Positions 35,205 through 40,541 of a stretch of 64,000 nt of DNA are shown in pieces. A program made the translations under genes and the position numbers. Positions within the stretch are counted from its first letter, which is position 1; the number at the start of each line of letters is the position of its first letter. The notes under the pieces were generated by a model. It was not told the DNA's origin. It saw only the letters and a list, made by a program, of their open reading frames with translations, and made no database searches. This DNA comes from Rhizodiscina lignyota (Eukaryota), in the NCBI GenBank assembly GCA_010015805.1, contig ML978124.1, forward strand, positions 1,674,001 through 1,738,000, written 5' to 3'.

Positions 35205-36194
35205 ATGGCGTCCTCTGATCTGAACATGCTCATCGACATGGGCTTCGACAACGAAAAGGCGTCCCTTGCTATCAAGAAGTCGGGAAACTGTGAGCAGCTT
35301 TCGAGATAGTGAGGCTTGTATGCACTAATATACAGCACAGTACAAGGCGCCATCGACTGGCTCGAGAAGAACCAAGACAAGACCGTCGAAGAAATCAAGG
35401 AGGAAGAGAAGCAGGAAAGCAATGTCTCGATTAGCGCAGCAGACGAGAATGCCCTATCGCTTGTGTGTAACGAGTGCGGCAAGAAGTTCCGTAGCCAGGC
35501 ACAAGCCGAGTTCCACGCTTCCAAAACTGAGCACACCGATTTCTCCGAGTCGACCGAAGAAATTGCGCCTCTCACTGAAGAAGAGAAAGCTGCCAAGCTA
35601 GCAGACCTGCGGGAAAAGTTGGCGGCCAAGCGCGCTGGCCAGAGCGAACAAGACAAGCTTGATAGGAAGAAGAATGAGGAGATTAGACGCAAGGCTACGA
35701 CGGAAGGCAAAGATATCAAGGAAGAGCTTCAGCGAAAGGAGCAGATCAAGGAAGCACAGGCGAAGCGCCGCGAGAAGCAGGCAGACATCGACGCGAGGAA
35801 GGCTGTACTGGCGAAGCTGGAGGCAGATAAACAGGAGCGAAAACGCAAGGCCGAGCTGGAGAAGGCCAAGCGTACTGGCCAAGCCCTGCCAGCGGAGCCT
35901 GTAGCAGCGGCAGCACCGGCCGCTCCGGCCGCTCCCAAGCCTTCTTCGAGCTATACAGAGGCGAGGCTACGCCTGCAAGTTGAGGGAGCGAAGCCGATCA
36001 TGAAGACATATCCGATCGAGACGACTCTCTTTGAGGTTGCGAGCGATGTGGAGAAGGAGGTTCTTGGTGGTGCAGAGGGTGGTGTGAATGGCTTCCAGAT
36101 GACGTTCCCAAAGAAGTCGTTCGATCGATCAGATTTTGGAATGACTATCAAGGAGGCAGGCTGGGTGCCTAGCGCGGCTCTGATTGTACGGTAG
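35205..36194 (+). CDS. UBA, C2H2 and UBX domain protein (UBXN1/SAKS1-like Cdc48 adaptor)
   Basis: MLIDMGF..AIDWLE (UBA), CNECGKKF..HASKTEH, a coiled coil and ARLRLQ..FPKK..PSAALIV (UBX). Confidence 0.9.
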
Positions 36195-36533
36195 ACGTCT
36201 CTTAGACGCTCCAAGGAGAGATTACGAGATGAACGTATTTGCATGGCATGGCTTGGCGTTTGAGAACTAAGATCCTTCTTGGCTTTCACGAGAAACTTGG
36301 GCGGCAGAATATTGATGAAATAGCACGTCGTCACAAAAATGAATCACTCAGTTGAAGTGCACATAATCTGAGACACTCGTCCATTTATCTTTACAGCGGA
36401 GATTATATGATCTTCCATTCAGGTTTTCCAGGCCCCATAACCCTCTTGCGGCCAATCAAAATGCCATTTGAGCCCCGTTGCTTGCCATTCTGTTACCAAA
36501 GGTTTCCATTCACACCTTCCATGCATTCATGAT

Positions 36534-37196
36534 CTAGTTAGAAAAGGGATCGGTCCTGGTGCCCCACCAGGTGAGGAACAGCGACAAACCGACAGTCTCG
36601 AAGACGCGGGCGACAGCACCGACGGCAACAGTGTCCAAGGGGCGCTTCTCAGTGAGGACTTGGGAGATGAACTGAGCAGACAGTTAGCATTCAGATCAGT
36701 CACTTAAAATTCAAAAGCTATAGAGCTCAAATGCCACTTACCGAAGGAGCCGAGCTAGCGAAGAAGATCAAAGTACCCATGTACGCAGCGCCCTTGTAGC
36801 TGAGCGTGCCAGTAGCGTTCAACAGCGCACCGACGCCATATGTCTGAATAGCAGAACCGACGATCGAGCTGCCCCACGAGGCGGCGGCAGTAGCAGCCTC
36901 CTTGGACCTGAAGAACTCCTCCTTGGTGTTGGCAGCCTGTGCCTGGCGGTAGGTCTCACCGAAGACAGGGGCGAGCACGGCGAGCGAGGCGGCGTGCGTG
37001 AAGACGGTGCCGAGGGCAATTGCGGAGGGCTTGACGGGTGGGAGATCTGGAGAGAGTGCTTGTTAGATTTACCTGAAGCATACGAAGAGATTTCGAACGA
37101 CGACGATGGACTTCAGAATGGCGCAATCGTCCTTTGTTTACGTATTGCGGGGAAGGAGAAGCGAAGGTGGATAGACGTACAGTGCAGAGTCGCCAT
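36534..37196 (-). CDS. Small membrane protein, DUF1761-like
   Basis: MATLH|YLPPVKPSAIALGTVFTH..GAAYMGTLIFFASSAPS|FISQVLTEKRP..LTWWGTRTDPFSN*; two introns; strongly biased codon usage. Confidence 0.75.
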
Positions 37197-38569
37197 TGTG
37201 TCGACTTGAGTGCTCGAGTGAATTCGAGAGTAGTCTTATTGCAATTGAGATGTAGTCTGAGGTACTTTGAGACTTGTTCAGGTGGGTTGATGGTGTGATG
37301 TTGGGGTTGCGCAGCGGGAGCTTTATTCGATTGCGGAGCGATGACGTTTGTTTGCATCACCAGACCTTTGGAACTTGGACCTGGCCTTTTTGCTTTCTCC
37401 CAGCCAATCTGGAACTAGCGTCGATCATGGAGGCTTTCATCGGCTCAAGGTTATGCCAATCTTGTTTCTAAAGTCCATGGAAGTTCCCCCTATTTCTCGA
37501 AGAATCGCATTCCCTCCGTTTTCTGCATCGGTTCGGGTACCCGCCTGACCCTCTGAGCATGCTTCGAGCAGAACGTCATCTGAGTGGAAGGTAGGACCTC
37601 TTTAGATCGATATGCTTCATGTTCAGTTTCCTTTCCTAGCTCTGTCAAAGCCTCGACAAGGATGCATCACCCTACGTGTCCATTGAAGGCATTCAGCGAG
37701 ACGGTTGAGCACCTCGAGGGTGGCAAAAAAGGTTGGTCGTAGCTTTCAAGACACTGAACAGTAATAGTGTGCAGCCTCATGCCTGTCATTGACAAATTGT
37801 ATAAGCTTACATTCCGAAGAATATACAACTGAGCTTTCAGAGATACTCTCTCTATTACCCTGGAGAGCAGGAGCTGATTGCCACTGAGCGATTACAGCCC
37901 GCTAGCGGCGAAATATTCTCTCACCCTCGAGCGCACTTCATACAACATCGGATTCGGTAACTGCTGGCCGCAACAAAGTGTTTGCGACGCATGTGAGTTG
38001 GCCTGCGGCCGAGTTTGAATGGCATGGCACAAACTCGAGAGTGCCCATTCGGGAAGATATTCTTCAGCCTAACGGCGAATAGGCCCTCACCAGCGAGGAG
38101 CAGAGGAGGCGGAAGTCACAGCGGAAAATGAACAGAGTGAAGAATTTCCCCTCCGTAGGAGAAAAAGCAAAGGGGTGCGGACCGGAAATGGTATGAGCAA
38201 ATATGAGGCCGCCTACGGATCAGATAAAGACTTAGGGCCGCTCGTAGACGGAGATCAAGGCATTCTAGGCCAGGGTGAATAACATCAATGCTGAGCGAAG
38301 GAAGCAAAGAATCAGAGGAGCTGAAGGCAAGGTCTTGCGGGAAGGAAAAGGGAATCTTCAGCCTCTGTAGAGTAACTGAATTTACAAATGGAATCATTTG
38401 GCAACGCAAATGCAGGCTAGTCTCTAAAATAGCTATCTGATATGGGAACCCTGTTCTGTAGAGTATACCGCCTGCAGCACAAACATGACTAAAAGAAAAA
38501 GGAGGTTAGACAGTGAATACAAAACTCAATCGCATTCTGCGAGAAAAAGAAGGTAGAAGATCCAATATT

Positions 38570-38586
38570 AAAAAAGGGCAAAAAAA
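38570..38586 (-). terminator. Pol III oligo(T) terminator of the tRNA-Thr gene
   Basis: T7 (38580-38586) starts 6 nt after the discriminator base and is followed by T6 (38570-38575) on the minus strand. Confidence 0.75.
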
Positions 38587-38591
38587 GAAGA

Positions 38592-38723
38592 TGCCCACTG
38601 ACAGAATCGAACTATCGATCTTCTCATTTCGTAACATACGAGTGAGACGCTTTACCACTCTGTTTACAGTTAGTCGGAAATTTTCATATTTAAGATTTTA
38701 GGAGACTTACGAGCCAAGCGGGC
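38592..38723 (-). tRNA. tRNA-Thr(CGT) with two introns: a 51-nt spliceosomal-type intron (38660-38710) and a 9-nt canonical intron (38628-38636)
   Basis: Exons 38711-38723, 38637-38659 and 38592-38627 give GCCCGCT TG GCTC AGTGGTA AAGC G TCTCA CTCGTAA TGAGA AGATC GATAG TTCGATT CTGTC AGTGGGC A (72 nt). Acceptor, D, anticodon and T stems pair; B-box GTTCGATTC. Confidence 0.9.
38660..38710 (-). other. U2-type spliceosomal intron inside the tRNA D-arm (between positions 13 and 14)
   Basis: GTAAGTCTCCTAAAATCTTAAATATGAAAATTTCCGACTAACTGTAAACAG: consensus donor, branch site GACTAAC (38669-38675) and CAG acceptor. Confidence 0.85.
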
Positions 38724-39284
38724 AGAAAACATCAGCTCTCTGAAACTGCATGTTAACTATAAAGACTTGACTAATACTGCACACAGAATTTTTTTGGTCG
38801 ACCCACTTTTACCCATTGCATCCATGGGTAGTCAGGAACATCCTCAGCTGTCTCCAAGGCTACAAAATCTTAGAATCTTCTTTACACCTTACATTTCCTG
38901 AAACCAATTTTCCCCTGACTGACCCTTACCGATGTTTCTAGCTCCTGCTCCGCCCAAGTGGAGAGCCTACCGCTGAAGTGGTACCCAAGTAAGAAATTCG
39001 GAGAAACCTTTTGGGCACATCTTTGGCTACCATTGGCAATTTTAGAGAATCAGAATTATTCTGTCATTGTCTAAACCTCCTCCAATGATGCTTCAGTGAC
39101 TATTGGAAGACTCCAGGGTCCATACAGAGACATAAAGTCGCTCTTTGGGGTGGCTCAATCGTGCTCTGCTTTCGCAATCCCGGTTGCTCCTAGCACACCA
39201 TTTCTGTCAGGGACTGGTAAAGAGAGGGATATCTGATTGATTTGTGCTATGCCGGCGGTAGTGCAGGGCCAAATTGCAGCAAGG

Positions 39285-40541
39285 ATGTGGTGCAGATGGA
39301 GCCGGCTATCAGGGGCTGATGGGCGAAGAATTGGAAGTGAGACGCGACATTGGATTCAGGAGGCTTTGGCCAAACCAAATCCAACATATGTTTCATCCCG
39401 GCGACTCTTCGGTATAGCGCGAAACAACGGAGGATGTCTATTTCGAAGAAGCGAAGAAAGAGCTAGAACGCAATTCATCCCAGCATCAACCGCTCTGGAA
39501 CCTTGCCGCTGGACAACATCATCCGCCCTCACAGGCACTGCTCGAGAACCAAATGTACAACCATACACACCTCCAACAACAGGACTCCTCTCATACCTTC
39601 CGCCGTCAGTCGTCCCATATGCTGAGCTCATTCGCCTCGACAAGCCAACCGGAACATACTATCTCTTTTTCCCATGTCTCTTCAGCACTCTCCTCGCGGC
39701 ACCTCTTGCAACCCCAATCGCTCCACCGCTTACAGTCATTGGGACCACGGCTCTCTTCTTCACCGGGGCGCTCGTCATGCGCGGCGCTGGGTGCACCATC
39801 AACGATCTATGGGACCGCAATCTTGATCCTCATGTAGCGCGAACAAGGCTGAGGCCGATTGCTCGGAAGGCTATAACTCCCTTCAACGGCCTTGTCTTCA
39901 CAGGCGCTCAGCTATTGACCGGATTGGCCGTACTCGTGCAGTTTCCAGTGCAGTGTCTCTACTACGGTATCCCGTCTCTTGCGCTGGTAGCGACATATCC
40001 GCTCGCAAAGCGTGTAACGCACTATCCACAATTTGTTCTCGGGCTCACATTCTCCTGGGGAGCCATTATGGGGTTTCCAGCCCTCGGGGTGGATCTTCTG
40101 TCTAACCAAGCAGCACTGACAGCAGCGGCATGTCTTTACGGTAGCAATATCGCCTGGACAGTGTTGTATGACATGATCTACGCCCACATGGACATCAAAG
40201 ATGACGTCAAGGCTGGTATCAAGAGCATTGCACTAAGGCACGAAAAGAACACCAAGGCTGTATTGAGTGGACTGGCGGTTGTCCAGATTGGCCTGCTTGC
40301 AGCAGCGGGGACTGCCGCTGGCGCAGGACCGATCTTCTTCGTCGGCAGCTGTGGTAGTGCTGCCGTCACGCTGGCAACGATGATATGGAGGGTCAAGCTG
40401 AAAGAGGTTGCGAACTGCTGGTGGTGGTTTAAGTACGGGTGTTGGTTCACGGGTGGAGGTATTGCACTTGGTTTGTTTGGAGACTATATTGCCAAGTGGA
40501 TGGGGGGAAAGGCAGAAAGTCAACAAGTGGAAGAGGGCTGA
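39285..40541 (+). CDS. COQ2: 4-hydroxybenzoate polyprenyltransferase
   Basis: PYAELIRLDKPTG, GAGCTINDLWDRNLD..RTRLRP and YDMIYAHMDIKDD (UbiA Asp-rich motifs), with an Arg/Ser-rich presequence. The start codon is uncertain. Confidence 0.95.
   Translation: MWCRWSRLSGADGRRIGSETRHWIQEALAKPNPTYVSSRRLFGIARNNGGCLFRRSEERARTQFIPASTALEPCRWTTSSALTGTAREPNVQPYTPPTTGLLSYLPPSVVPYAELIRLDKPTGTYYLFFPCLFSTLLAAPLATPIAPPLTVIGTTALFFTGALVMRGAGCTINDLWDRNLDPHVARTRLRPIARKAITPFNGLVFTGAQLLTGLAVLVQFPVQCLYYGIPSLALVATYPLAKRVTHYPQFVLGLTFSWGAIMGFPALGVDLLSNQAALTAAACLYGSNIAWTVLYDMIYAHMDIKDDVKAGIKSIALRHEKNTKAVLSGLAVVQIGLLAAAGTAAGAGPIFFVGSCGSAAVTLATMIWRVKLKEVANCWWWFKYGCWFTGGGIALGLFGDYIAKWMGGKAESQQVEEG

Follow-up and report, generated by a model that had tools for sequence, protein, structure and literature searches.

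A tRNA-Thr(CGU) gene of Rhizodiscina lignyota with a putative mRNA-type intron in its D arm, and similarly interrupted genes in metagenome contigs

The locus described here raises the question of how a tRNA gene might be transcribed, and its RNA joined, when the A box of its internal promoter is cut by an insert with the signals of a nuclear pre-mRNA intron, and the further questions of whether such a gene is functional and whether it stands alone. Textbooks and reviews separate the two types of intron, with spliceosomal introns being assigned to transcripts of RNA polymerase (Pol) II, U6 being an odd Pol III case, and tRNA introns to an endonuclease and a ligase; in their accessible sections, the reviews concerned describe tRNA splicing as independent of the spliceosome (PMC12530127, PMC13149111, PMC10275265). 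The stretch of R. lignyota DNA that was analyzed, referred to as the window, is 64,000 nucleotides long and has a GC content of 50.6%. On its minus strand, positions 38592-38723 constitute a tRNA-Thr(CGU) gene in three pieces, separated by two inserts. Its features, and those of its immediate flanks, are as follows.

38757..38763, minus strand: TATA-like heptamer TTTATAG, at -40 to -34 from the mature 5' end
38711..38723, minus strand: exon 1, 13 nt, tRNA positions 1-13 (5' strand of the acceptor stem, U8, G9, 5' strand of the D stem)
38660..38710, minus strand: 51-nt insert of spliceosomal type, between tRNA positions 13 and 14, in the D arm
38710-38705, minus strand: GTAAGT, 5' splice site of the insert
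38675-38669, minus strand: GACTAAC, branch motif of the insert, its branch A being 10 nt from the insert's 3' end
38662-38660, minus strand: CAG, 3' end of the insert
38637..38659, minus strand: exon 2, positions 14-37 (D loop, anticodon stem, anticodon CGT at 38640-38638)
38628..38636, minus strand: 9-nt ordinary tRNA intron at the canonical 37/38 site, with an internal ACG complementary to the anticodon
38592..38627, minus strand: exon 3, positions 38-73 (3' strand of the anticodon stem, 5-nt variable loop, T arm, 3' strand of the acceptor stem, discriminator A)
38613-38603, minus strand: B box, AGTTCGATTCT, intact
38586-38580 and 38575-38570, minus strand: T7 and T6, Pol III terminator-like runs starting 6 nt past the discriminator

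Of the elements of a type 2 Pol III promoter, the B box and a T-run terminator are present and a contiguous A box is absent. The A-box consensus TRGCNNAGTGG is found only across the junction of exons 1 and 2; in the DNA there is no contiguous A box at +8 to +19, its 5' half staying at +8 to +13, and the best contiguous match in the DNA of the gene (38665-38655) agrees at 7/9 specified positions. An earlier, sequence-only reading of this DNA had described an insert with mRNA-type signals and an A box split at the DNA level, and the positions and sequences that it gave are all confirmed; the TATA-like element, the B box and the T7/T6 runs likewise lie on the minus strand where it had placed them. 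Its statement that neither half of the interrupted A box fits the consensus in the DNA is formally true but overstated, given the 7/9 match, which lies beside exon 2 and is the second of the two strings quoted there, and the interval that it assigned to the locus, 38651-38763, covers only the 5' part of the gene.

The gene is not recognized as it stands by the finders employed. ARAGORN, applied to the raw DNA with or without its intron option, gives 0 tRNAs in the window, and there is no Rfam match at the gene at gathering scores; at permissive settings Rfam yields only a partial match, to model positions 9-63, whose 19.1 bits fall short of the gathering score of 29. When the 51-nt insert is removed in silico by its coordinates, ARAGORN calls a tRNA, and removal of both inserts gives a 72-nt tRNA-Thr(cgt) cloverleaf, in which the acceptor stem has 7 bp (including one G.U), the anticodon and T stems have 5 bp each, the D stem has 3 bp and the variable loop is 5 nt long. 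The anatomy of the gene and this in silico cloverleaf are established directly. The assignment of the 9-nt intron is based on an insertion in the anticodon loop of the Rfam alignment, on the predicted fold and on the ARAGORN Thr(cgt) call after its removal. With the once-spliced sequence ARAGORN instead gives the label Ser(cga) and an intron at 34/35; this was rejected in favor of Thr(cgt) on the basis of the 5-nt variable loop and the 37/38 placement. The predicted fold of the unspliced RNA retains the acceptor, anticodon and T arms, with most of the insert lying outside the arms. No second copy of the tRNA gene was found in the window. A RAGATH-25 match on the plus strand at 38525-38555, in a T-rich stretch 3' of the tRNA gene, reached 20.9 bits (E 0.0084), the gathering score being 49, and was set aside as probably a chance match.

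The signals of the 51-nt insert are those of a short mRNA-type intron, with a 5' splice site of the form GTRNGT, a CTRAY branch motif and a YAG 3' end. The strict pattern GTAAGT..CTAAC..AG occurs in the 64-kb window at this locus only, against 0.48 occurrences expected from shuffles. For comparison, a crude set of intron candidates was assembled from the window, i.e. short GT..AG segments linking long open frames and having GTRNGT, CTRAY and YAG; this set, which includes false positives, comprises 24 candidates of 46-102 nt, a range that contains the length of the insert. The insert thus resembles the organism's own introns. When the 220 nt upstream of exon 2 were shuffled, an insert whose removal restores a 7/7 acceptor stem arose in 4/2000 cases, and in 0/2000 when a 5' splice-site consensus was also demanded. 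The sequence-only reading had pointed out that the insert has no run of four T, which it took to be compatible with Pol III read-through; the observation is correct, the longest T run being 3, but as an argument it is without weight, since T4 is also absent from 19/24 of the crude intron candidates. An origin of the insert as a repeat or introner was rejected, there being no other copy of more than 12 nt in the window and no inverted repeats around the gene.

Whether the arrangement is peculiar to this gene was addressed in metagenome contigs, by a scan with a pattern for the core from the D loop to the anticodon, which gave 81 Thr(CGU) loci that were then classified by script. Apart from the 37/38 intron, 62/81 loci are contiguous; the filters left 4/81 unclassified, the reasons being variant T loops, a variable loop of 6 nt or the end of a contig, and their 5' halves are contiguous by eye. 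The other 15/81 carry GT..AG inserts of 49-70 nt, at 4/5, 9/10, 42/43, 61/62 or 63/64, the removal of which restores stems of 7/7, 5/5 and 5/5 pairs; the script demanded GT and AG at the insert ends, such that those dinucleotides are no independent evidence in the metagenome set. The split loci fall into the following groups.

Group 1 (L007, L019, L045, L058): insert after position 4; 56 nt; GTGCGT
Group 2 (L037, L052): insert after position 4; 62 nt; GTGAGT
Group 3 (L014, L018, L061, L065, L072): insert after position 9; 49-50 nt; GTCAGT
Group 4 (L053, L073): inserts after positions 9 and 61; 64-66 and 52-54 nt; GTAAGT and GTATGT
Group 5 (L024): inserts after positions 4 and 63; 56 and 54 nt; GTAAGT and GTTAGA
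Group 6 (L016): insert after position 42; 70 nt; GTTAGT

Three loci (L053, L073 and L024) thus have two GT..AG inserts in one gene, and all 15 split loci have in addition a 37/38 intron, of 15-35 nt. Including that of the window there are 16 distinct inserts, which have G at +5 in every case (16/16), a YAG 3' end in 15/16 and, in 14/16, a YTRAY motif located 9-18 nt before the 3' end. Three insert lineages (GTCAGT, GTTAGT and GTTAGA) have a pyrimidine at +3, which is unusual for 5' splice sites. T runs do not exceed 4 in any of the 16, though by a rough estimate composition alone gives as much. Chance rescue of the stems, assessed in five of the loci, occurred in no more than 8/2000 shuffles per locus, and in 0/2000 when the 5' splice-site consensus was included. 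Recurrence of such inserts outside the window is therefore a direct observation, for tRNA-Thr(CGU), the one isoacceptor that the scan covered. An ortholog with an insert at 13/14 was not found: a metagenome pattern demanding an insert of 37-67 nt at 11-14 beside exons like those of the window gene gave 0 matches. With respect to synteny with the window, blastn matched the tRNA alone in any of the loci and tblastx matched nothing, and with an E limit of 1 no further tRNA genes were detected next to any of the 15 split loci. The Atlas taxa for the neighbor of L007 are mixed.

Detection of these loci by covariance model is also impaired. Rfam matches 12/15 of the split metagenome loci, with 24.9-40.7 bits, and only 4 attain the gathering score; L053, L073 and L024, each with two GT..AG inserts and a 37/38 intron, have no Rfam tRNA match at E up to 1, and such two-insert genes would thus escape routine annotation.

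The relation between exons, inserts and flanks in these families is informative as to function. In group 3, the exons of L014, L018, L061 and L072 are identical at 72/72 positions in every pair, compared with 78-98% identity for the inserts and 62-87% for the flanks. The exons of L053 and L073 are likewise identical (72/72), with inserts at 81-92% and flanks at 75-87%. L007 and L037, which adjoin orthologous HAT-repeat genes with 92% amino-acid identity, have identical exons, while their inserts and flanks are only ~60% alike; the 4-nt exon 1 and the GT and CAG ends of the insert are nevertheless kept. Over all within-family comparisons, flank identity ranges from 55 to 95%. Group 3, of the L014 type, and unsplit genes of the L021 type have homologous flanks, and exactly two acceptor pairs differ between them, 6-67 and 7-66, both in a compensatory manner; the 5' partners of these pairs sit in exon 1, i.e. 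across the insert from their 3' partners. The combination of identical exons with diverged inserts and flanks, together with compensatory changes across an insert, implies selection on the joined product, rather than on the DNA as it is, and on this comparative sequence evidence the relatives are under purifying selection on the joined tRNA. One mature sequence is found both split (in the L007 group) and unsplit (in L008, L066 and L077), so that in the L007 family some of the exon identity could be due to gene conversion.

The window gene itself can be compared with its nearest unsplit relative, L003. The 13 nt of exon 1 are all identical to the first 13 nt of L003, and the mature sequences show 5 differences, all of which are in the T stem and keep pairing, as two double compensatory changes and one change from U.G to C-G. 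A tRNA pseudogene or a tRNA-derived repeat is disfavored as an identity for the locus in view of the perfect stems after removal of the inserts, the structure-preserving changes relative to L003 and the absence of a repeat copy in the window.

By the established behavior of TFIIIC and TFIIIB, the transcription start site is measured from the A box. In the window gene the A box is cut in its middle, the only instance among the cases seen; inserts after position 4 or 9 instead leave an intact or nearly intact A box, moved 49-66 bp further from exon 1. With a displaced A box, a start measured from it would be expected to fall within the insert, so that exon 1 would be lost. A TATA tetramer at -50 to -24 from exon 1 is present in 13/15 distinct split loci, including that of the window (the exceptions are L016 and L018), as against 18/49 distinct ordinary loci, duplicates and two loci with less than 60 nt of upstream sequence having been dropped from these counts. 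In the three split families with an insert after position 4, the intact A box is 56-62 bp further from exon 1, yet the TATA is still at -45 to -35. Unsplit relatives have it as well (L008 and L066 at -34; L021 and L043 at -36), for which reason the TATA is regarded as a trait of the lineage. Positioning of TFIIIB by a TATA element thus looks, from the arrangement of these sequences, like the normal habit of the lineage, making such inserts tolerable, rather than like a special device of the window gene. The proposal of the sequence-only reading that the gene needs non-standard promoter logic is borne out in part, since the displaced A boxes of the relatives and the anchoring of their TATA to exon 1 speak for a start that does not depend on an A box in the usual place. 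Each of the 15 split metagenome loci is followed, within 32 nt, by a run of T5 or longer, as are the unsplit relatives; these runs, and the homology of the flanks to those of unsplit genes, favor Pol III.

The best explanation for the locus, which taken as a whole is moderately probable, is that the tRNA gene is functional, that its 51-nt insert is a spliceosomal intron and that transcription is probably by Pol III, with the start positioned by the TATA. That the gene is functional is very likely; if it is, there would be little doubt that it is the spliceosome that removes the insert, and transcription by Pol III would be quite probable. From the sequences we infer that an RNA is made and spliced, as well as the polymerase involved and the order of the steps. 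The host gene would be a nuclear ascomycete gene for tRNA-Thr(CGU), the precursor of which contains two different introns. TFIIIC would bind the intact B box, TFIIIB would be positioned by the TATA-like element so that transcription starts just 5' of exon 1, with the split A box contributing little to the promoter, and Pol III would terminate at the T7/T6 runs. The 51-nt insert at 13/14, as a U2-type GT-AG intron, would be removed by the spliceosome, and the 9-nt intron at 37/38 by the tRNA splicing endonuclease and ligase. Nuclear spliceosomal splicing would probably come first, because it builds the D arm, with end processing and endonuclease splicing following. To our knowledge no demonstrated precedent exists in which the spliceosome efficiently processes an uncapped Pol III transcript whose first exon comprises just 4-13 nt plus a leader.

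The same gene and intron could also be expressed via a Pol II transcript starting from the TATA-like element, which would be spliced co-transcriptionally and trimmed by RNase P and RNase Z. The spliceosome normally acts on capped Pol II transcripts, first exons of 4-13 nt may be easier to use when recognition of the 5' splice site is assisted by a cap, and the recurrence of inserts at six positions suggests a good spliceosome substrate; a TATA at about -35 is compatible with either polymerase. T5+ runs, however, directly follow every split gene, as they do the unsplit relatives with their homologous flanks, the B box of the window gene is intact, and there is no convincing same-strand coding gene downstream of the tRNA, so that a Pol II precursor is considered rather unlikely. 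As to function, the locus might alternatively be a dead tRNA gene that acquired an intron-like piece by reverse splicing and reverse transcription, or by chance, and that is neither expressed nor spliced, another Thr(CGU) gene serving in its place. Consistent with this are the lack of a detected ortholog with the same insert, the D stem with only 3 standard pairs and the Rfam score below the gathering score. A dead gene would nevertheless have to account for a cloverleaf that is otherwise perfect after removal of the inserts, for the preservation of T-stem pairing by all 5 differences from L003, for the intact B box, T runs and TATA-like element, and for a rescue that chance supplied in just 4/2000 shuffles; analogous split genes, moreover, combine 72/72 exons and compensatory changes across the insert with diverged inserts and flanks. 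Loss of function is hence regarded as improbable.

The manner of removal is the remaining point of divergence. Introns outside the anticodon loop, in the D or T arm and several per gene, occur in systems where the tRNA endonuclease cuts at a bulge-helix-bulge, as in Archaea, Cyanidioschyzon and nucleomorphs (PMC3978253 and PMC4090602, in the parts available), and the 51-nt insert could in principle be a non-canonical tRNA intron of this kind. At the window insert, however, the canonical register allows 0/4 central-helix pairs and nearby registers no more than 2/4, while across the 16 distinct inserts, that of the window included, 0-3 of the 4 central pairs are in register. The predicted fold, moreover, places most of the insert outside the tRNA arms, and an extended 5' splice site, a branch motif and a YAG end are not expected for that pathway. 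Within the same gene the separate 9-nt insert lies at 37/38, as expected for an endonuclease intron, whereas the 51-nt insert lies at 13/14 and has no bulge-helix-bulge. Its removal by the endonuclease is thus very improbable indeed.

With spliceosomal removal from a Pol III transcript as the preferred reading, introns in U6 snRNA genes are, by analogy, the closest precedent for the window gene. In Schizosaccharomyces pombe the B box of U6, which is transcribed by Pol III, is situated within an mRNA-type intron, and mRNA-type introns are present in U6 of Schizosaccharomyces and Rhodotorula (Tani and Ohshima 1989, 1991; Frendewey et al. 1990, as cited in the available text of PMC5855946). In both U6 and the window gene a Pol III small RNA gene is interrupted by a short GT-AG intron that has a branch motif, disturbs the layout of the internal promoter and is accompanied by an upstream TATA. 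The host here, however, is a tRNA gene, the insert splits or displaces the A box rather than carrying the B box, an endonuclease-type intron is present alongside, and splicing is deduced from sequence signals. S. pombe tRNA genes have a TATA near -30, and the role of TATA in these genes was reportedly dealt with by Hamada et al. in 2001. The U6 gene of Saccharomyces cerevisiae (SNR6) has a TATA, an A block and a distant B block, an A-to-B spacing of ~200 bp being possible, and 5'-flank consensus elements are known for S. pombe and some plants (PMC5855946 and PMC11547032, respectively, as far as their accessible text goes). The window gene resembles these TATA-assisted Pol III genes in combining an upstream TATA with a B box; it differs in that its A box is interrupted and in that its dependence on TATA is suggested by position alone. 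Like genes with canonical 37/38 introns it is a nuclear tRNA gene that is interrupted, and it has such an intron itself (38628-38636); the difference lies in the 51-nt insert at 13/14 with its GT, branch motif and AG. With the bulge-helix-bulge introns and the split or permuted tRNA genes of Archaea, Cyanidioschyzon merolae and nucleomorphs, it and its relatives share introns outside the anticodon loop, the presence of several per gene and the fact of being missed by standard finders; by contrast with those systems, the motif itself is absent here and the insert bears the signals that mark nuclear pre-mRNA introns in the same organism.

Full-text literature searches, including the parts available of PMC12530127, PMC13149111, PMC3879985, PMC10275265 and PMC5855946, turned up no account of a spliceosomal intron in a tRNA gene, but most subscription journals lay outside their scope, so that an earlier report is possible; the string "spliceosom" does not occur in the accessible portion of PMC4090602. 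The new aspect would accordingly be that a spliceosomal intron of a Pol III small RNA gene, as known from U6, is here, judging from the sequence, in a tRNA; its high interest hinges on RNA evidence. More broadly, the balance of evidence, all of it from tRNA-Thr(CGU), leans towards spliceosomal introns being recurrent and selectively maintained in nuclear tRNA genes of several fungal lineages, at six or more sites (4/5, 9/10, 13/14, 42/43, 61/62 and 63/64) that break or displace the Pol III boxes, with up to two per gene in addition to the 37/38 intron, and with junctions shifted by sliding over 2-5 nt, with no change to the mature tRNA.

If this is correct, the spliceosome would routinely process tRNA precursors, which would most likely be Pol III transcripts from an upstream TATA. 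There would also be a class of tRNA genes that is invisible to standard annotation, and isoacceptors that are apparently missing might be explained, because ARAGORN and Rfam miss or under-score such genes. The genes would further provide a natural test bed for Pol III promoters with an A or B box that is interrupted or shifted 50-70 bp away from the start, and rare evidence on the gain and sliding of introns, e.g. by reverse splicing into an abundant RNA.

With regard to sliding, L024 and L053/L073 have the same mature sequence and blocks in common between their inserts, but there is an offset in the junctions, of 5 nt at the 5' insert and of 2 nt at the 3' insert; from the sequences this looks like intron sliding or re-insertion over those distances. 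The arrangement is 4/5 plus 63/64 in L024 (1132-1346) and 9/10 plus 61/62 in L053 (1122-1348) and L073 (593-815), and the shared blocks include one of 11 nt around the branch motif.

In the vicinity of the window gene, an exon of a COQ2-type UbiA prenyltransferase lies at 39237-40541, divergent from the tRNA gene, its nearest Atlas clusters being mostly from Ascomycota, in keeping with the ascomycete character of the window, and a UBX-domain gene lies at 35313-36194 on the plus strand. The ~2 kb between the UBX-domain gene and the tRNA (36400-38590) hold only open reading frames that lack a Pfam match; those at 38116-38505 and 36956-37414 have translations that look non-coding. In the metagenome contigs, the HAT-repeat open reading frames occupy L007:2-910 and L037:1541-2422, and the tRNA genes split at 4/5 are located ~220-270 nt beyond their 3' ends. 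The tRNA gene is co-directional with this neighbor in L007 and convergent with it in L037, suggesting a local inversion.

A further structural peculiarity is seen in group 3 and its unsplit relative, in which the 3' half of the tRNA and ~38 nt of downstream flank are repeated as a perfect inverted copy ~55-125 nt upstream, a repeat that the window gene does not have. The copies are at 1098-1167 and 1341-1409 in L014, where the arms of 52 and 18 nt are both 100% complementary, and at 1104-1153 and 1299-1348 in L021. In group 3 and in L021 alike, each upstream arm fits the variant of the acceptor 3' strand that is found in its own gene.
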